Shown in pieces: positions 9,907 to 62,993 of a DNA stretch of 64,000 nt. Within the stretch, counting starts at the first letter, position 1; each line of letters opens with the position of its first letter. This stretch comes from Promethearchaeota archaeon (lineage in GTDB: Archaea > Asgardarchaeota > Lokiarchaeia > Sigyniarchaeales > SOKP01). The stretch covers positions 37,878 to 101,877 of the forward strand of contig JAEOTR010000053.1 in the NCBI GenBank assembly GCA_016839705.1, read 5' to 3'. The notes beneath the pieces are model-generated. The model was not told the origin of the DNA. It made no database searches and saw nothing but the letters and a program-made list of their open reading frames with translations. Both the position numbers and the translations under genes were made by a program.

Positions 9907-10974
9907 ATGGAAGAGAAGATTATAGCAGTTACAAGAGGAGATGGGGTAGGGCCCGAAGTTGTTGATGAAGGACTTAAAATTTTAAAATTAATAGCCAAAT
10001 TCACTAATTTTGATTTTAAGTTTAAGGATGCACCCGCAGGGGGAGAAGTATATAAAAAATATGGTAATAATCTTCCTGAACGTTCTTTTGACATAATTAA
10101 AAGTGCTGATGCACTCATATTTGGAGCTGTTGGGCTTCCAGACCTTCCTCCGGGTGTTGCCGAAACAGCTATCCTCAGAATAAGGCAAGAATTAGATTTA
10201 TATGTTAATTTAAGACCTATCAAACTCTATGAACCATTAAGAGACAGATGTCCTCTTAAGGATGAATTTATTGGTAATGGTATTGATATCACCTTCGTTC
10301 GAGAAAACACTGAAGGTTTGTATGCAAATATTGGAAATATTTCTGATGATAAAGCTGAAAATCTCATGATCTATACTAGAAAAGGATGTGAACGTATCAT
10401 CCGATATGCGTATGAATTTGCTAAAACAATGGGACATTCAAAAGTTACTTCAGTAGATAAGGCAAATATTCTAAAACCAAGTCAATTATGGCGTAAAATA
10501 TTTCACGAAATAGGCATAGAGTATCCAAATCTTCAAAAGGAAGATTTTTATATTGATGCCTTCTGTCAATGGTTAATTAGAGAACCTGATAAGTTTCAAA
10601 CTGTCGTAACGGGCAATATGTTTGGAGATATAATAAGTGATGAAGGTGCCTTTCTTATTGGAAGTTTAGGAATGGCATCGAGTGGAAATATTCATCCTGG
10701 AAAAATATCTATGTATGAACCGATACATGGCTCTGCCCCAGATATCTCAGGTAAGGGAATAGCAAATCCTATTGGAGCTATTCTTAGTGTCAAACTAATG
10801 ATGCAAGAATCATTTCAATCTCCTGCTATTGCAAAAGAAATTGAATTATCCGTTGAGGAGTCCCTTAAAGAAGGCAGGACCATTGATCTTCAAAATCCTG
10901 ATATTAAAAACCTCACAACAAAAGAGATGGGAGATTTAATAGCAGAAAAATTAAAATTAAGATTAAAAACATAA
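9907..10974 (+). CDS. leuB: 3-isopropylmalate dehydrogenase (IPMDH/IDH family)
   Basis: GDGVGPEV, NLRP, VRENTEGLY, DKANI, NMFGDIISD, EPIHGSAPDI. Confidence 0.82.
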   Translation: MEEKIIAVTRGDGVGPEVVDEGLKILKLIAKFTNFDFKFKDAPAGGEVYKKYGNNLPERSFDIIKSADALIFGAVGLPDLPPGVAETAILRIRQELDLYVNLRPIKLYEPLRDRCPLKDEFIGNGIDITFVRENTEGLYANIGNISDDKAENLMIYTRKGCERIIRYAYEFAKTMGHSKVTSVDKANILKPSQLWRKIFHEIGIEYPNLQKEDFYIDAFCQWLIREPDKFQTVVTGNMFGDIISDEGAFLIGSLGMASSGNIHPGKISMYEPIHGSAPDISGKGIANPIGAILSVKLMMQESFQSPAIAKEIELSVEESLKEGRTIDLQNPDIKNLTTKEMGDLIAEKLKLRLKT

Positions 10975-10985
10975 ATCTGAATATT

Positions 10986-12545
10986 TTAATATTTATCATC
11001 AATAACGGAGAGCATTGACTCTAACTGATCGAATATATCTAAACGAAAAGCTGTTCCGATTCTAAAGAAGAAGAGATCAATTGTTCTATTCTCAAGTTGA
11101 TCATCCACGTTCAATTCCTCTAATATTTGAGACCAACTCGTACTTTCTGTTGCTCTTATTCCAATTAATACAACTCCCTTATCTTTAGAGTTTTCAATGA
11201 TTTTAATAATAATCTCTTTCCATTGGGGGTCAACATGTTCTTTGTCTCTTGCATCAAAGATACAAAATACTCCATCAGAACTCGAGACATCGTCAGCTGC
11301 AGAATAAACATGCTGTTTTGTAATTAGACCATTTGGATATTGGTAAACTTGTTCATCCTCATAATCTCTTACTAATGTTTGATCTCCTAATTTCTTTATA
11401 TCACCAATAATTTGAAGTCCTGGACTCCACATTGTGTTATCTGCAACAAACGAAAGGGTAAAGACAATTTTTTTCTTTATAATAGAGGATATTTTTTCAT
11501 ATAATAGTTCACTGCGTCTTTCATCTTCGATTTCTTTGCTCTTCATTACGTAATGAAATGAAATCAAATTGAAAGCATCCTCTATATTCTCTCCGGTCAA
11601 TGCGCTTGTTTCGATATAAGATAACTTTATTATTTCTTTGTCAGATATTTTATTTGCTTGCTTTACTCCTTCTTGATAAAAGACTTGCCGTTCTTCACTC
11701 AAGTCTGATTTATTGCCAACTAATACAATGGGGATTTCCTCATCGGTTGTAAACTCCTTTAGTTCGCGGTACCAGTTCAATACGTTATTAAATGACTCGC
11801 GCTTTGATAGATCAAAAACAATAAATGCTGCTTGAGCCCCTGAATAATAGACTTTTCGAAAACGACGAAAAAACTTTTGAGCTCCCAAGTCATATAATGT
11901 TACACCAATTTCGTTCCCAAAAAATTCAAAGTTGTGAGTTAAAATATTAAGCCCTATAGTTGCCCTGTAATCTTCTGAAAACTTTTTTTCGACAAACCTA
12001 CGAATAATAGAAGTTTTTCCAACTTCATGATCACCCAAAATAACGAATTTAAAACGGTATTCCCCTTTAGTTGTTAAATCCATTTGATATAGTTGATTTT
12101 TCAACCGATCCACATTTTCTACCTCAAATTCGAAATTAGGGACGGATAATTGGATCAAATCGCCTTCTTCAGCTGATAAAATCTGAGCAGTTTTCTCGGC
12201 GAGAAATAATCCATAAGGGGAGAGTTTCTCAGGTGAAGCCATATGGTTTAATACTAAACTTAAGATGCGCTCTTCGTCAACTGATATAAACAATAAACGG
12301 TGATCTTCTGTATCAAAACTGGTATTCCCAAATTTTTTGAATGAAAATTCGTTTCTCATTCTCTCCAAAACAGGATTTACAATAGAAGTTAAGACAGAAA
12401 CAAGTTCGATGTCAACGTCTTTCCTCTTCTCACCTGCAATTATAAGACCTTCACTGTCTGAAACAATGACAGCTTCAACCTCCATATTAATCTCCAGAAA
12501 CTTATTAAACAATTCAGTAAAAAATTTATTTTTTCTTAAGACCAA
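10986..12545 (-). CDS. Roadblock/LC7 + Rab-like small GTPase + degenerate C-terminal G-like domain (paralog 1)
   Basis: N-terminal VEAVIVSDSEGLIIA (roadblock); G1 GDHEVGKT, G2 ATIG, G3 DLGAQ, G4 NKSD, G5 ETSAL. Confidence 0.88.
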   Translation of the reverse strand: MVLRKNKFFTELFNKFLEINMEVEAVIVSDSEGLIIAGEKRKDVDIELVSVLTSIVNPVLERMRNEFSFKKFGNTSFDTEDHRLLFISVDEERILSLVLNHMASPEKLSPYGLFLAEKTAQILSAEEGDLIQLSVPNFEFEVENVDRLKNQLYQMDLTTKGEYRFKFVILGDHEVGKTSIIRRFVEKKFSEDYRATIGLNILTHNFEFFGNEIGVTLYDLGAQKFFRRFRKVYYSGAQAAFIVFDLSKRESFNNVLNWYRELKEFTTDEEIPIVLVGNKSDLSEERQVFYQEGVKQANKISDKEIIKLSYIETSALTGENIEDAFNLISFHYVMKSKEIEDERRSELLYEKISSIIKKKIVFTLSFVADNTMWSPGLQIIGDIKKLGDQTLVRDYEDEQVYQYPNGLITKQHVYSAADDVSSSDGVFCIFDARDKEHVDPQWKEIIIKIIENSKDKGVVLIGIRATESTSWSQILEELNVDDQLENRTIDLFFFRIGTAFRLDIFDQLESMLSVIDDKY

Positions 12546-12693
12546 GTATCCTTTACCCCAATTATTTATATCTATATTATGAATTTACTTACTATTATTT
12601 GTTGTTGTTATTAAATTATAAAACATATTTAACTAGTTAATGAACTCTCAAAAAATTATTCCTATAGAAGTACAGTAAACTAAGATATTCGAG

Positions 12694-14280
12694 CTATAGA
12701 TATCTTATTGTATTTAACATAACCTTGAGCTGATCATAAATTTCCAATCTATATTCAACCCCTAATTTGAAAAACAATAAAGATATCATTTTCTCTTCTA
12801 ATAATTCATTTACGTCAAATTCTTCCATTATCAGAGACCAATCACTTTCATCAGAGACGCGAATGCCAATTAATACTACTTTATTTTCTTTCATCTCATT
12901 TATGGTTTTTATAACAACATCTCGCCATGCTGGATCGACATGATCCTTATAACGAGCATCAAAGATACAAAACACGCCGTCAGCATCAGACACTTCAAAA
13001 TTGTGATAAAGATAATTTTTTAGAGTAACCCCATTTGAAAATCTGTATAATTTCTCGTCTCTCTCATCTTTAAGTTTCTTACAATCTTCTAAACCGTTGA
13101 TCTCAGCCAAAATCTGTAGTCCAGGACTCCAAAATTCATTTTCAGAGATTATTGTTAAAGTTAAAAGAGTATCCATAGGTACACCGATTATTTTCTTTTC
13201 CTTCAAGATATTATTTAACTCGTTCACTAAATCCTGTTTGACAATCTCTTCCTCTTCCTCTTTACTTTTCGATATATAGTGATATGCAATTAAAGTAAAC
13301 GCGTCCTCAACATTTTCACCTGTTAGCGCACTCGTTTCAATATAGGATATTGCTATGTTTGGCTTATTCAGTAATTCATTTACTACTTGTACACCATCTT
13401 CATAACTAACTTCTCTCTGATCTCGTAGATCACTTTTATTTCCAATGATAATTATTGGTATTTCTCTTCCCCCAATAAAATCCTCTAATTCTTTATACCA
13501 TTCTTTTAAACTTTCAAAAGATTTTCTATTCGTGAGATCAAATACTATAAATGCTGCTTGTGCACCTAAGTAATAGGTTTGTCGAAATCTTCGGAAAAAT
13601 GTTTGAGCCCCAACATCCCACAGACTATAGACGATATTATTGCCATAAAAGTCATAAGAATGACTTAGAATATTTAATCCTATTGTTGCACGATAGTCGT
13701 GAGAAAATCTATTTTCTACAAATCGTCTAACTAGACTTGTTTTTCCTACTTCATGATCGCCTATTATTATAAATTTGAATCGATATAACCCTCCCTGATC
13801 TAATCGCAATTGATATATTTGGTTTTTTACTCTTTCATTGTAAGCGGTTTCATCTGTTTCATACTCAAAATTAGGAATATTTAGCTGAATACTATCACCT
13901 TCTTCAGCATTTAAAATTTGTACTGATTTTTCTGCGAGTAAATATGCATAAGGAGATGCTTTATCAACTGATGCTAAATTATTTAGTACAAGGCTCAAAG
14001 TTCTACTTTCATCTAAAGAAATAAATAACAGTCTATAAAATTCTGTATCAAAGCTAGCTGTTCCAAATTTTTTGAAAGCAAACTCATCACGTATCCTTTC
14101 TACGATTGGATTTATTATTGATGTTAAGACTGAGACAATTTCTATATCCACGTCACTTCTTTTTTCACCTGCTATGACTAAACCAAGCCGATCACTCACG
14201 ATCACCGCCTCTACATCGTCATTTATTAGCAAAAATTGATTAAAAAGTTCCGTGAAGAGTTTAGTTCGATTTATCAACAA
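12694..14280 (-). CDS. Roadblock/LC7 + Rab-like small GTPase + degenerate C-terminal G-like domain (paralog 2)
   Basis: VEAVIVSDRLGLVIA; GDHEVGKT, ATIG, WDVGAQ, GNKSD, ETSAL; collinear with the neighbouring paralog over its full length. Confidence 0.88.
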   Translation of the reverse strand: MLINRTKLFTELFNQFLLINDDVEAVIVSDRLGLVIAGEKRSDVDIEIVSVLTSIINPIVERIRDEFAFKKFGTASFDTEFYRLLFISLDESRTLSLVLNNLASVDKASPYAYLLAEKSVQILNAEEGDSIQLNIPNFEYETDETAYNERVKNQIYQLRLDQGGLYRFKFIIIGDHEVGKTSLVRRFVENRFSHDYRATIGLNILSHSYDFYGNNIVYSLWDVGAQTFFRRFRQTYYLGAQAAFIVFDLTNRKSFESLKEWYKELEDFIGGREIPIIIIGNKSDLRDQREVSYEDGVQVVNELLNKPNIAISYIETSALTGENVEDAFTLIAYHYISKSKEEEEEIVKQDLVNELNNILKEKKIIGVPMDTLLTLTIISENEFWSPGLQILAEINGLEDCKKLKDERDEKLYRFSNGVTLKNYLYHNFEVSDADGVFCIFDARYKDHVDPAWRDVVIKTINEMKENKVVLIGIRVSDESDWSLIMEEFDVNELLEEKMISLLFFKLGVEYRLEIYDQLKVMLNTIRYL

Positions 14281-14462: not shown

Positions 14463-15044
14463 ATGCCTACTTGCATTGTTTGTCATTTAGAGATAGAAGA
14501 AAATCCAAACACTCTTTTCAAGTGCACTAATGAACATCCAATTCACAGGAAATGCTTAGCTGAATGGTTATTGCATTCACAAAATTGTCCATTATGTACT
14601 GAACCCTATTCGCAGAATGTTCTCAATCAGTTTGAAGATGAGCTTGAACAAAAAGAGCAAGAAAAGCAGGCTGCGATAGACGCTGAAAAAAAGAAAGAGG
14701 ATTTTAGAAAAGTTGAAGAATTAGCAAATAGAATTATTTTCTTAAAAGAAATTGAAGAAATTGAACAATTAATTGATGATAACCAATATGAGGACGCAAT
14801 AGAAAAACTCTTAGTATTATATAATGAAGGCTCTTATGATGTAAACGACCAAAAGGTGCTGTTTCTTTTAGGAAAAGCGAATTTTTTGAAAGGACGATTT
14901 GACCTTACGATAAATTTCTTATTCAAACTCGTTAAGCTTAATTTTGAGTATCCTGATGGATTCTTATACCTTGGAAAAGCCTATGAAAAGCTTGGATTGC
15001 CCGATAAAGCGAAATGGGCTTTTGATAGAGCTAAAATAGAATAG
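14463..15044 (+). CDS. RING-H2 zinc finger + coiled coil + TPR protein (putative E3 ligase)
   Basis: CIVC-x12-C-x3-H-x2-H-x2-C-x3-W-x6-CPLC; C-terminal TPR-like LGKANFLKG and YLGKAYEKLG...A. Confidence 0.85.
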   Translation: MPTCIVCHLEIEENPNTLFKCTNEHPIHRKCLAEWLLHSQNCPLCTEPYSQNVLNQFEDELEQKEQEKQAAIDAEKKKEDFRKVEELANRIIFLKEIEEIEQLIDDNQYEDAIEKLLVLYNEGSYDVNDQKVLFLLGKANFLKGRFDLTINFLFKLVKLNFEYPDGFLYLGKAYEKLGLPDKAKWAFDRAKIE

Positions 15045-26495: not shown

Positions 26496-28850
26496 TTGAA
26501 AATGAAACCATCAATCTTAAAGAAGTTAAATTTAATAATTGAAGAAGCTAATACATTAAAAGACAATAATAAATACCAGAAAGCGATAGATAAATTCGAA
26601 CAAGCTCTAAATTTTATTAATATAAAAGTTGATGAGCCTAGTGAAAAGAAAATTGAAGTTGAAAATATTCAAAATGCTATTAATCAGACATACTCAGTTG
26701 AGATAAACAGCATTATTCAAGAATCAATACGCTTAACAGCATTAAAAGAATATGAAAATGCGAAAAGTAATTTTAAGAAAGCTATTAGCATTGCTAAAGA
26801 AAAAATTAGTGATCAAGATCTTAGAGATGCAGAAATTGATGATATAAATGACTTACTTACCGAAATTGAAATAGAGCAATTAATCATAAAGGGAATAAAA
26901 ATAAGAGATGAAGATAAAAATTTAAATAATGCAATTAAGATATTTGAAGATGGACTGAATCTTGCAGATAAATTTCGAGATCCGGAGGAAAAAAAAGAGC
27001 ACATTTCCAAGATAAATAAAGAGATTAGTAAAATAAATGAACTTCAATTCAAACAAATATTGCAGCAAGGTACTGCATTAAAGCAATCTGGTCAATTTGG
27101 TGAGGCAATTAAGGTTTTTGAAAAAGCAAAGAGCTATATTGAAAAATCGTTCTCTCCTGATACAATGAAAACTGAAATTGTTAATCTTATTAATTTGTCA
27201 AATGATATCTATTCTAATCAGATCAAATCAATATTAGAGAAGGGGATAGATTTAATTAGTAACGGTTCAAATGAGGAAGCTATTTCAGAGTTAAGGAATG
27301 CCTTAGGTGTTGCAAATAAAATGTATGATTCTGATTTAAAAAAATTTGAAATCAGCCTTATCGCGGAAGCATTGAATCCAATATATATTGAGCAAATTAA
27401 ACCAATATTAGAAGAAGGAAAAGAAATTACTCAACGGGACAACTTCAAAGAATCAATTACAGAGATAAATAAAGCTGTAGCGATATATAATAAAGCGCTA
27501 GTAATAGCAGAATCCATGGTAAATTCAGAAAGAAGGATTCTTGAGATTAAAAAAATTGGTGATTTAATTAACCAAGCTTCTTTACCAGGGATTAGTTTGA
27601 TTAAAGATAAATCAATTCAATTAATAGGAATGCAAAAATACGAGGAAGCGATTAATGAAATATATGTAGCACTAAGCATTGCAAAACAAATGGCATATCC
27701 AGAAGAAGAAAATACTGAACTCGATGAATTAAAGAATATCATGAATAAAGTATATTCTACTCAAAATAAGGAAGTGATAAATCGTGGAAAAGAACTAGTA
27801 AGCCATAATGAATATGAAAAAGCGATAGAAGTTTTCAATGAAGCTCTGAATATGACAAATAAAATGTACCTTACTGAAGAAATGGATAACGAAGTAAATT
27901 TGATTAAAAGCTTGATCTATGATACCGAAGTAAAACAGTTAGTGGGAAAGGGTAAGTTAGATGAACAACAGAAAGAAAAAGAGAAAGAAATAGAAAAACT
28001 TCAAAAAAGATTAGAATATGCGCAAACAATTGACGATCCTCAACGTCGAGTTGAAGAAATGAATAAAATTAAAAATATGATTGATAATGTTCATTCTGAA
28101 GAAATTAAATTCTTAATTGAACAAGGTAATCAACTCGCACAAAAAGAAGCCTTTGAGGAAGCTTTTAGTTTTTACGAAAGAGCATTAAAAGTTAATGAAA
28201 TGATGGAAGAACCCGATATTAAAAATAAAGATTTAGTAAAAGACAGTTATAAAAGAGAGCTAATTAATAAAGCAAAGTTAGAAATAGATAATACCAACTA
28301 CGATAGTGCAATTGTAAATGCTAATAAAGCAGTTGAATTAGACTCAAAATTTGTAGATGCTTATTACCACATTGGCTTAGCTTATAATTATAAAAAGAAA
28401 TATGATGCCGCAATAGAAAACTTTCAAAAAGCATTAAATTACGATAAAAACCATATTGAATCCTGGAACTTAATTGGTTTAGCGTATATGGCTAAAAGTG
28501 AATTTAATAATGCGTTGAATTTCTTAAACAAAACTCTTGAGATTGACCCGAACTATTCCACTGGATGGTTTAATATAGGTAATATATATAAGCAAACTGA
28601 TGAATTTGATAAGGCAATTGAGAGTTATGATAAAGCTACGGAATTAAATCCTGATTTTGCTAAAGCATGGTTCTTTATGGGATGTGCCTATTTCGATAAG
28701 AAAAATTATCATCAAGCTCTTGAATCTCTTGAAAAAGCGATTAAATTAGATCCTAATCTTGCTCAAGATGTTAATCCTCTTATTAAAGATCTGAAGTCTA
28801 CTATTGATAAACTTAAAGAAACATTAGAGCTATCATTTCTTAATAAATAG
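26496..28850 (+). CDS. Helical repeat protein: about ten 58-aa repeats + C-terminal canonical TPRs
   Basis: C-terminal 34-aa TPRs (AYYHIGLAY, SWNLIGLAY, GWFNIGNIY, AWFFMGCAY); N-terminal periodic G..L....Y.EAI..F..AL. Confidence 0.85.
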   Translation: MKMKPSILKKLNLIIEEANTLKDNNKYQKAIDKFEQALNFINIKVDEPSEKKIEVENIQNAINQTYSVEINSIIQESIRLTALKEYENAKSNFKKAISIAKEKISDQDLRDAEIDDINDLLTEIEIEQLIIKGIKIRDEDKNLNNAIKIFEDGLNLADKFRDPEEKKEHISKINKEISKINELQFKQILQQGTALKQSGQFGEAIKVFEKAKSYIEKSFSPDTMKTEIVNLINLSNDIYSNQIKSILEKGIDLISNGSNEEAISELRNALGVANKMYDSDLKKFEISLIAEALNPIYIEQIKPILEEGKEITQRDNFKESITEINKAVAIYNKALVIAESMVNSERRILEIKKIGDLINQASLPGISLIKDKSIQLIGMQKYEEAINEIYVALSIAKQMAYPEEENTELDELKNIMNKVYSTQNKEVINRGKELVSHNEYEKAIEVFNEALNMTNKMYLTEEMDNEVNLIKSLIYDTEVKQLVGKGKLDEQQKEKEKEIEKLQKRLEYAQTIDDPQRRVEEMNKIKNMIDNVHSEEIKFLIEQGNQLAQKEAFEEAFSFYERALKVNEMMEEPDIKNKDLVKDSYKRELINKAKLEIDNTNYDSAIVNANKAVELDSKFVDAYYHIGLAYNYKKKYDAAIENFQKALNYDKNHIESWNLIGLAYMAKSEFNNALNFLNKTLEIDPNYSTGWFNIGNIYKQTDEFDKAIESYDKATELNPDFAKAWFFMGCAYFDKKNYHQALESLEKAIKLDPNLAQDVNPLIKDLKSTIDKLKETLELSFLNK

Positions 28851-60956: not shown

Positions 60957-62993
60957 ATGCCCCAATCAGCTCCTAAAGATATAAGACATGCTGAAAATCT
61001 AAGGCGTGAAGGGAAGTTATAAGAAGCCCTTGAGGTTATCAATGATATAGAAAAGAAAGGAGACCTTATACCTCGGGATCAATTAACCTTACTTATTGTA
61101 AAAGGAAAAATATTAACTATGTATCAACGATTAGGGGAAACCGTTAGAGTTGGGAAAATGGCATATCGTTTAAGTCAGAGTTTAGGGAGAACCAAAGAAA
61201 CTATAACTTCCCTTCTTTTTAAAGCAAATTCTCTCTATCTCGGACAACATGACAAAGCCATTAAATATGTTGTCGAAGCTGAGAGTTTACTCAATTCTCT
61301 CTCTGATGTTTCACCTTCATATCTCACCAGACAGAAAAAAAATATTTTGTTCAGGAAATCATATGCTTATTTTTATAAAGGAGAATGGGATGAAGCATTA
61401 GAAGCAGGACTGGAGTGTTTAAAGTTACTAGAAAATTCTGGTAATAAATCAGATACCGCATACATCTTGTATCTGCTAGGATGCATATACTTAAGAAAAG
61501 ATGATATTGATATCGCTCTTGATTACGCTTCGAGTGGTTTAACGATGTTTGAAGAAATAGGGGATCAAGTAGGTTTAGCAACGATTCTTGAATTGCTTGG
61601 CGCAATTTCTTATAATAAGGGTGAACTTAATCAAGCAATTAAATACTGTAAAAAGATTTTATCCTCAATAATGATCAGTAGTCGAGTCAAACTCTTGAGT
61701 ATGAGTCTTCTAGGAGAGGTTTATGTAATCCGAGGTGAATTCGATAAAGCTTTAAAGTATTCAAAACAGGGAATTGTACTTGCAGAGAAAGATAATTTAT
61801 ATGATTTTTTTGTTAGATTTCAAATTAAGATTGGTAGTATATATATGTTAAAGGGAGAGTATGATCTTGCATTAGAATATCTAAAGCCTGGTTTATCACT
61901 TGCAGAAAAAATGAAAGATGTCCTTGGTATCACTAGTTCATTAGTATACCTTGTATTTTTATATCTTGAAAAAGATGATATTGAAGAAGTAAAAAAATAC
62001 CTAAAACGATTAAAGAAAATGGAAGTTCAAATGGGTGTAAAGGTAATAACTCATGCTTATCAACTTTTAAAAGCAATATTCTTGTTAAAAACGGGGGGAA
62101 GCCGCAATCGAACAGAAGCAGAAACATTGTTAAAACAAATCTCTTCGGATGAAACCAATTTAATCATAATTACAAATGCTCTGATTTATCTCTGTGAATT
62201 TTATCTAGAGGAATTAAAGCTATTTGAAGATACTGAAGCATTATCAAAAGTCAACCCACTAATAGGGCAATTATATAAAATCTCAGAGGAACAACGTTTG
62301 TATGGAACTTTAGCTGAGACAAAATTATTACAGGCAAAAGTGGCATTAATTCAAATGAATTTTGAGGAGGCGCAACGGTTATTGACTCAAGCTCAACGTG
62401 TAGCTGAGTTATACGGTATTACACGTACGGCTCAAAAGATTTCAAGCGAACATGATAATTACTTAGAAAAATTAAGTGAATGGAAAAGTCTTAAAGAAAG
62501 AGATGCTCCAGTATCAGAGCGTTTGAGATTAGCCTCAGTTGAGGGAGTAATCGAACGCTTACAAGGTAAAGGCGCAATAGAGCCTCCAGAATTGGTTGAT
62601 GAAGAACCGATCGTACTTTTAATCATGGATAAAAGTGGAGTTTCATATTTTACTTACCCATTTAAAGAAGATTGGGATTTTGAATGGCTCTTTAGCTCAT
62701 TCATGTCGGCGTTTGACACATTTAGCTCAGAAGTTTTTTCCGAATCGATTGATCGTATCAAAATCGGTGAAAACTTAATCCTTATCAACCCGATTGAAAC
62801 ATTTCTGGTATGCTACGTAATTAAAGGCCAATCATACCTTGGTTTGCAAAAGCTCAATCGATTCTCAGAAGCTGTAAGAAATAATTCTGATATTTGGGAA
62901 AGGCTGACTAAAGCGGTTCAAACAGGTGAAGAATTGGAATTGAATAATCCCACTGCTCTTGGGGATGTAATGAATGAAATTTTTTCTGTTTGA
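60957..62993 (+). pseudogene. TPR-repeat protein with C-terminal longin-like domain, interrupted by an in-frame TAA at codon 22
   Basis: ATG 60957 MPQSAPKDIRHAENLRREGKL*EALEVI... is in frame with ORF 61119..62993; TPRs; C-terminal PIVLLIMDKSG...LFSSFMSAF. Confidence 0.7.

Follow-up and report, generated by a model that had tools for sequence, protein, structure and literature searches.

What a third domain adds to a roadblock-GTPase fusion, and why the gene for such a protein should be kept as a tandem pair, are the questions raised by a locus of a lokiarchaeal genome (Promethearchaeota archaeon, assembly GCA_016839705.1). The locus lies in a window of 64,000 nucleotides (nt), the whole stretch of DNA analysed (contig JAEOTR010000053.1, positions 37,878 to 101,877), to which all coordinates below refer unless another contig is named. 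The upstream paralog, gene B (12694..14280, 528 amino acids (aa)), and the downstream paralog, gene A (10986..12545, 519 aa), are colinear, co-oriented on the minus strand, together with all their domains, and 57% identical. Both encode a roadblock domain, a Rab-like G domain, a linking helix and a C-terminal domain, a three-part architecture that a sequence-only reading of the DNA had proposed and that Pfam, profile comparisons and structure models bear out. The C-terminal domain is predicted to be a nucleotide-free pseudoGTPase, on the strength of a modelled fold, structure matches and profile comparisons, and the reading that we favour, with about an even chance of being right, is that these proteins form roadblock dimers, both homo- and mixed, carrying a blunted Rab-like switch and a nucleotide-free, partner-binding pseudoGTPase domain that differs between the paralogs.

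A predicted small-GTPase fold without its motifs

The C-terminal domain spans 12700..13164 in gene B (aa 373-527) and 10995..11462 in gene A (aa 362-517), where it has a net charge of -15 and is 43-46% identical to that of B. A Pfam search of the domain gave no match, and a BLAST comparison with the G domain of the same protein was not significant. An AlphaFold2 model built on a 49-sequence alignment (predicted local distance difference test (pLDDT) 92.8) has the element order of a G domain, with three strands after alpha1 and a shortened switch II without its helix. Foldseek, VIA-align and an Atlas search concur in assigning a small-GTPase fold. The best match of the model is HodArfR1-GDP (PDB 8oul; Z 13.9, root-mean-square deviation (rmsd) 3.3, 165 residues), compared with Z 10.5 for the best non-GTPase, and most of the top 30 structure matches are full-length or GDP-state Arf, Arl or Sar1 proteins (Z 11.6-14.0); CENP-M, LIC and AAGAB are not among the top matches, an absence that is uninformative. 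The sequence signal agrees with the fold: the domain profile matches Rnd1 among PDB sequences (E 9e-4), and in hhalign it reaches a probability (P) of 83% (E 1e-5) with the Rab-like profile of the genome, 63% with the family's own G domain and 7% with a Rag/Arf-like profile, the negative control (receiver domains) being weak at two sequences only. Since the profile is nearer to Rab-like than to Rag/Arf-like GTPases, a Rab-type origin of the domain is more likely than an Arf origin, as far as the sequence signal goes.

The nucleotide-binding motifs have gone. GKS/T is found in 0/154 family members and each of the other motif patterns in at most 3/154; in gene B, GKS/T, DxxG, NKxD and SAK/L are all lacking. 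The sequence-only reading, which saw a domain repeating the G-domain order without its motifs and counted two nucleotide-free G folds in the complex, is supported as a prediction, and the small-GTPase fold whose absence would have spoken against it was predicted by AlphaFold2 and recognised by Foldseek. Of the residue matches that it listed between the two domains, those of beta4-alpha3-beta5 are reproduced by sequence alignment, whereas those of beta1, beta6 and alpha5 rest on the model. By strand register, W384, S385 and P386 would stand in for the P-loop Gly-Lys-Thr. The domain combines two features of a class i pseudoGTPase, namely a small-GTPase fold (a predicted model with sequence support) and degraded G1-G5 motifs. 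It is under purifying selection, with a ratio of nonsynonymous to synonymous substitution rates of 0.07-0.14 compared with 0.06-0.09 for the G domain.

The helix preceding the domain (13189..13266 in gene B, aa 339-364) continues alpha5 of the G domain without a break, the two being a single helix (324-364) in the full-length model. It superposes on the N-terminal helix of Arf and has a conserved hydrophobic face (L351/L355/I358/L359). In GDP-state ArfR the N-terminal helix is folded back, with switch I present as a strand (10.1101/2024.02.28.582541). The C-terminal domain may accordingly be pictured as binding no guanine nucleotide and as fixed in a closed conformation resembling Arf-GDP, the linker helix occupying the place that the N-terminal helix takes in Arf; it would then be a partner-binding module carried by a helical arm that extends from the G domain. 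Class i pseudoGTPases are interaction modules (PMC12490416).

A Rab-like G domain with an altered G3 motif

The middle domain (13267..13785 in gene B, aa 166-338; 11541..12059 in gene A, aa 163-335) belongs to Pfam Ras PF00071 (E 1e-42 to 1e-43). Its best PDB sequence match is Thor-Rab (E 2e-33) and its structure matches are Rabs, with Z up to 24, whereas RagD and LokiRagO are far lower (Z 16) and Gtr1_RagA scores 17 bits, below its cut-off of 22. All members (154/154) retain G1, the G2 threonine (Thr199 in gene B), G4 and G5, as is expected, along with the fold, of an Asgard Rab-like GTPase. The G3 motif departs from the DxxG of these GTPases. At the position of Ras G60, gene B has Ala225 (motif 13603..13617, aa 222-226) and gene A has Ala222 (motif 11877-11891); across the family, 148 of the 154 members have Ala or Ser (144 with GA, that is DxGAQ, and four other Ala/Ser variants) and six have Gly. 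By comparison, Gly occupies this position in 49/49 other Rab-like GTPases tested in the genome, in which 69 open reading frames carry a small-GTPase domain. The domain is hence not the complete Rab-like G domain of the sequence-only reading, and because of the G60A-type substitution it is doubtful that the complex would contain two active ones.

H-Ras G60A remains in the open state 1, and its GTPase activity is strongly impaired (PMC4867591). By analogy, the Ala or Ser here, together with the His at the Ras G12 position (87% of members, gene B included), would make the middle domain a slow or blunted switch; it would bind Mg-GTP/GDP and be nearer to a GTP-loaded sensor than to a fast-cycling Rab. 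The substitution marks a branch (support 96/86) joining f1, the family of the source genome, to family f3, whereas Gly is retained in family f4 and recurs on a few long branches. The f4 relatives could therefore serve as Gly-retaining controls for a natural G60A-type GTPase. Four residues of switch II are invariant (R231, R233, Y236 and Y237). Position 198, just before the switch I Thr, is Ala, Thr, Ser or Pro rather than the MglA-type Arg finger, and a conserved Arg197 stands one residue earlier. A C-terminal prenylation Cys, a trait of eukaryotic Rabs, was sought in the last six residues and found in 0/154 members.

Probable roadblock dimers and the history of the tandem pair

The N-terminal domain (13912..14268 in gene B and 12177..12533 in gene A, aa 5-123 in each) is a roadblock. 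Pfam Robl_LC7 matches it weakly in A alone (E 0.016), yet matches 21/33 aligned N-terminal domains, a set that includes 10 two-domain roadblock-GTPases, with a best E of 1e-7. A single-sequence search of the PDB gave no match, whereas the profile matches solved roadblocks (E 4e-6), and the model of the B domain has the Roadblock/LC7 topology and superposes on MK-D1 Roadblock3 (9jue; Z 16.8, rmsd 2.0, 120 aa) as well as on MP1-p14 and MglB (Z 15.6 for MglB).

Roadblocks dimerise through beta3 and the top helix, alpha2 (PMC3747258). By this precedent, and given how conserved the segments are, the roadblocks of this family would dimerise through alpha2 (46-66 in gene B) and beta3 (74-78). Between the two paralog clades of genus g1, identity is 75% in alpha2 and beta3, compared with 56% in the other roadblock helices, 65% in the G domain and 46% in the pseudoGTPase domain. 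In genus g14, 11/15 clade-diagnostic sites lie in the pseudoGTPase domain and none in alpha2-beta3. The ancestral single-copy protein would have been a homodimer, and because the roadblock surface is nearly unchanged among paralogs, A, B and the two further paralogs of the genome (on contigs C32 and C86) probably form homo- and mixed dimers. A complex prediction with the A and B roadblock-plus-linker fragments gave an interaction score from aligned errors (ipSAE) of 0.20 against a mark of 0.32; having no controls, it carries no weight either way.

The locus consists of thiC, thiD, a divergent RING/TPR gene, the family gene and often leuB. In the gene tree, the upstream genes of g1 and g14, the pair-bearing genera, form one clade (Shimodaira-Hasegawa-like approximate likelihood ratio test (SH-aLRT) 94) and the downstream genes another (97), which places a single duplication before the split of g1 and g14. 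The pair has been retained in unchanged order in 42 genomes, with a gap of 85-169 nt in 36 of them, 564 nt in one and 3.2-4.8 kb in five. In three g14 genomes (L079, L082 and L084) the insertion that splits the pair carries a 428-aa-type Ras-domain gene plus two unannotated genes, all co-oriented.

The sequence-only reading had the two products heterodimerise through their roadblocks. An obligate or strongly preferred A:B heterodimer of the RagA/RagC type, with the G domains in opposite nucleotide states, would account for the single duplication and for this long retention; an independent tandem duplication in genus g13 and a reported Rag-like operon pair of MK-D1, whose heterodimer was modelled (PMC10933270), are also in its favour. 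We nevertheless consider it unlikely. In six other genera (14 genomes) the locus has a single family gene, and members from distant families are single-copy as well. The locus has become single again in G012, G204 and G245 (one clade), G292 and G229, representing about three independent losses; four of these genomes are near-complete (96-99%) and one is 81% complete, and G012, G204 and G245 (96-99% complete) contain one family member in the whole genome. In two of the five genomes with split pairs, opposite-strand genes lie between the paralogs. Start codons are unlike, being mostly ATG in upstream and mostly TTG in downstream genes. All G motifs are identical in A and B, leaving no built-in asymmetry, and the interface shows no extra divergence, with 75% identity between A and B and 70-76% between either and the single-copy orthologs. 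As obligate pairing, the claimed heterodimerisation is poorly supported, given the single-copy loci and the conserved interface; a facultative or preferred A:B form is possible in view of the retention in 42 genomes. The expectation that the pair be conserved among relatives was borne out in two genera only, the paralogs occurring singly in other genomes. In the reading that we favour, the tandem pair would have been kept because the pseudoGTPase domains of the paralogs acquired separate partners, and not through mutual need of A and B.

Occurrence of the family

The searches found the three-domain family in no more than part of a single lokiarchaeal order. Full-length members occur in 96/101 f1 genomes, in the one f3 genome and in 4/4 f4 genomes. 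The 14 genomes of family f2 that were searched contain no three-domain member, their best matches being two-domain roadblock-Rab proteins. A draw across the phylum outside f1, in which only 11 candidates per genome were scored, gave one match in 232 genomes, from a bin that is 9% contaminated. When 1.8 billion representatives were searched, each of the 49 clusters obtained was a full-length member or an apparent fragment, and the ESM Atlas labels the clusters merely as GTP-binding proteins. A wide spread over the phylum, suggested by NCBI labels of Thor-, Hod- and Odinarchaeota, was rejected, several such contigs matching genomes placed in f1. Stand-alone pseudoGTPase proteins were also considered: two of the short matches were checked, and both are contig-edge fragments. 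A tree of the roadblock-G part places the three-domain proteins among roadblock-Rab proteins of lokiarchaea that have two domains only.

Several members or relatives differ from the common form. Three members (822-896 aa) have added C-terminal TPR repeats (L036:4597-7284; L103:3687-6155 and 11526-14216). L265 (G032:C1:3693574-3694545) is an f2 two-domain roadblock-Rab protein with Ser at the G60 position; it groups weakly with the three-domain clade and, on a long branch, is possibly an ortholog that lost the pseudoGTPase domain. Two proteins of other architecture also combine G domains. One (G000:C29:23112-25115, minus strand, 667 aa) starts with an N-terminal domain, followed by a degenerate G domain that retains NKxD but has no visible DxxG; a roadblock (351-471) comes next and a Rab-like G domain (496-663) last, making this a further tandem-G fusion in which one copy is degraded. 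The other (G000:C53:340-2316, minus strand, 658 aa) has a start that, as judged by eye, is Cdc48-N-like, and continues with two G domains, a degenerate one (326-454) and one whose P-loop is without Lys (483-645).

Weighing the explanations

The pseudoGTPase domain could instead be an intramolecular regulator, docked either at the MglA site, which is the two-helix face of the roadblock dimer, or against the G-domain switches, and controlling exchange or hydrolysis. A roadblock dimer does take up one GTPase at its two-helix face (PMC3747258, PMC10329633), the AAGAB pseudoGTPase binds a longin/roadblock-fold subunit (PMC12490416), the domain has been seen only in fused form, and the invariant switch II residues of the G domain would suit such a contact. 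On the other hand, the switch regions that would touch a roadblock are among the least conserved parts of the pseudoGTPase domain (0.47-0.58 compared with 0.75-0.84 in the core strands), the closest relatives, two-domain roadblock-Rab proteins, lack the domain and are common, and the G60 change is later than the fusion, as f4 keeps Gly. We regard this regulator as improbable.

Still less credence is given to a sensor in which the former nucleotide pocket holds some other small ligand and signals through the linker helix. By topology, the most conserved non-core residues, W384, P386, Q389, D441, R443, W481 and S482, surround the old pocket from three loops (P, beta4-alpha3 and G4); however, a Trp and a Pro, at the Gly-15 and Ser/Thr-17 positions respectively (a register taken from secondary structure), more likely fill the pocket, and the phosphate cavity of p190RhoGAP pG1 is occluded (PMC5593906). 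Finally, a domain not derived from a G domain, such as a flavodoxin-like or other alpha/beta sandwich, is very improbable and largely refuted here: Foldseek top rows do include the flavodoxin domains FprA and SsuE, identity to GTPases is 9-13%, Pfam is silent and hhalign to the single own G domain gives P 3%, yet the GTPase match includes the beta2-beta3 hairpin, its Z is beyond that of any non-GTPase, the signals to Rnd/Rho and Rab-like profiles are independent of it, and language-model features point to the CENP-M, Ras and Arf families (0.88; a lead only).

In the reading that we favour, the proteins would be a lokiarchaeal signalling scaffold, a roadblock-Rab fusion that acquired a C-terminal pseudoGTPase. 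Several observations weigh against it. No partner of the pseudoGTPase domain was found. This domain is the fastest also within clades (70-79%), so its divergence between paralogs is partly plain rate; in g1 the diagnostic sites are spread evenly over the domains, and two conservative changes fall in alpha2. The pair is kept in 42/47 informative genomes of the two genera, which a preferred heterodimer would explain too. The full-length model has a predicted template modelling score of 0.54, with low confidence in both switches and in the roadblock-G linker, which makes the domain arrangement uncertain, and the likeness to Arf-GDP rests on one predicted model, in part on its extra helix. The effect of G60A is extrapolated from H-Ras, and the preceding Gly here may compensate for it. 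A more detailed version, that an Arf-GDP-shaped archaeal pseudoGTPase sits on a helical arm from a naturally G60A Rab domain, and that partners are selected by combinatorial pairing of the paralogs, of which this genome has four, through roadblock dimers, with A:B as one functional form among them, is offered tentatively and is rather doubtful.

The locus and its neighbours

The B-A spacer (12546..12693, minus strand, 148 nt) is AT-rich and has a purine-rich, Shine-Dalgarno-like motif before the TTG of gene A. Both A and B start with TTG, aligned with the ATG of orthologs and preceded by such a motif. TATA-like words lie upstream of both genes and are suggestive only, the DNA being AT-rich; a scan of the locus for sigma-70 promoters and terminators stayed at chance level, with a sigma-70 model unsuited to archaea. 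An isopropylmalate-dehydrogenase-like gene (9907..10974, plus strand) is convergent with the pair and is used as a synteny marker only.

The divergent RING-H2/TPR gene (14463..15044, plus strand) is a conserved neighbour within f1, where almost every locus has it in head-to-head arrangement with the family gene. As a dedicated partner it is unsupported: it occurs in 13/14 f2 genomes, which lack the family, it is not adjacent in f3 and f4, and thiD and thiC near the locus are about as conserved. In some f2 genomes the RING/TPR part is fused behind an N-terminal part of 340-490 aa without a Pfam family. The window encodes two more TPR-repeat proteins (26496-28850 and 61119-62993, plus strand), the first with a 590-aa N-terminal part of no clear family.

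Other members of the family have other neighbours. In about a dozen genomes, the C32- and C86-type paralogs are convergent with large genes for LamG/Ig-domain surface proteins (L031:14-4255 and L032:18-3194, on C32 and C86). In f4 (L038, L039, L040 and L277) the gene lies directly downstream of mevalonate-pathway-like genes, a by-eye judgement from translations. Conserved genes of 735 and 415 aa without a clear Pfam family (L093:512-2719 and L093:6672-7919) flank a 545-aa member, and this type of second locus is conserved in genera g13, g14 and g17.

Comparison with known systems

No description of the three-part architecture was found in the open literature searched, in keeping with the sequence-only reading; nor was an archaeal nucleotide-free pseudoGTPase found there, the structurally studied ones being eukaryotic. 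The family provides a well-conserved candidate in about 100 genomes, and its single-gene, paired and re-singled loci offer a testable case of a roadblock homodimer becoming a heterodimer, a step assumed for the Rag GTPases. As finds of it are limited to part of a single lokiarchaeal order, it bears on parallel evolution and not on the ancestry of eukaryotes.

The nearest systems are the Asgard roadblock-GTPase fusions, known in both domain orders, along with one Rag-like operon pair (MK-D1, PMC10933270). The N-terminal roadblock and the Rab-like G domain are common to both; the proteins described here add a C-terminal pseudoGTPase and have Ala or Ser for the G3 Gly, while f2 has the two-domain forms only (14 genomes). 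With Rag/Gtr and LokiRagO/LokiRagM (PDB 8yl2, 9m28) they share a G domain and a roadblock in one chain, a paralog pair and an expected roadblock dimer. They differ in that the order is roadblock, G, pseudoGTPase and not N-terminal G and C-terminal roadblock, in that the G domain is Rab-type (Z 24 compared with 16, Gtr1_RagA staying below cut-off), and in having 57% identical paralogs with the same motifs, common single-copy genomes and a third domain. Domain order and G-domain type hence exclude membership of the Rag family, and "Rag-like", as the sequence-only reading called the pair, stands as an analogy: the proteins may work like Rags in being roadblock-linked dimers. MglA-MglB also combines a roadblock with a small GTPase, whereas here the two are fused, the G domain is Rab-like, and Ala rather than Arg stands just before the switch I Thr, where Thor-Rab has Arg37.

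With Arf/ArfR-GDP (HodArfR1), the C-terminal domain shares a predicted closed shape, a folded N-terminal helix and an extra strand at switch I. The helix is here an internal linker and not a free membrane anchor, the nucleotide motifs and hence the features of an interswitch toggle are absent, and the sequence signal is nearer to Rab/Rho. The class i pseudoGTPases p190RhoGAP pG1/pG2, CENP-M, dynein LIC and AAGAB/Irc6 (PMC5593906, PMC12490416) share the small-GTPase fold and the degradation of all five G motifs, and p190RhoGAP, much as here, combines in a single chain a non-canonical, non-hydrolysing G domain with nucleotide-free ones, two in its case (PMC10211241, PMC5593906). The present domain is archaeal, roadblock-Rab-fused and predicted to be nucleotide-free; it probably arose independently of the eukaryotic domains. 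If so, and if the prediction holds, the family would be a prokaryotic, independently evolved counterpart of the eukaryotic pseudoGTPase scaffolds.

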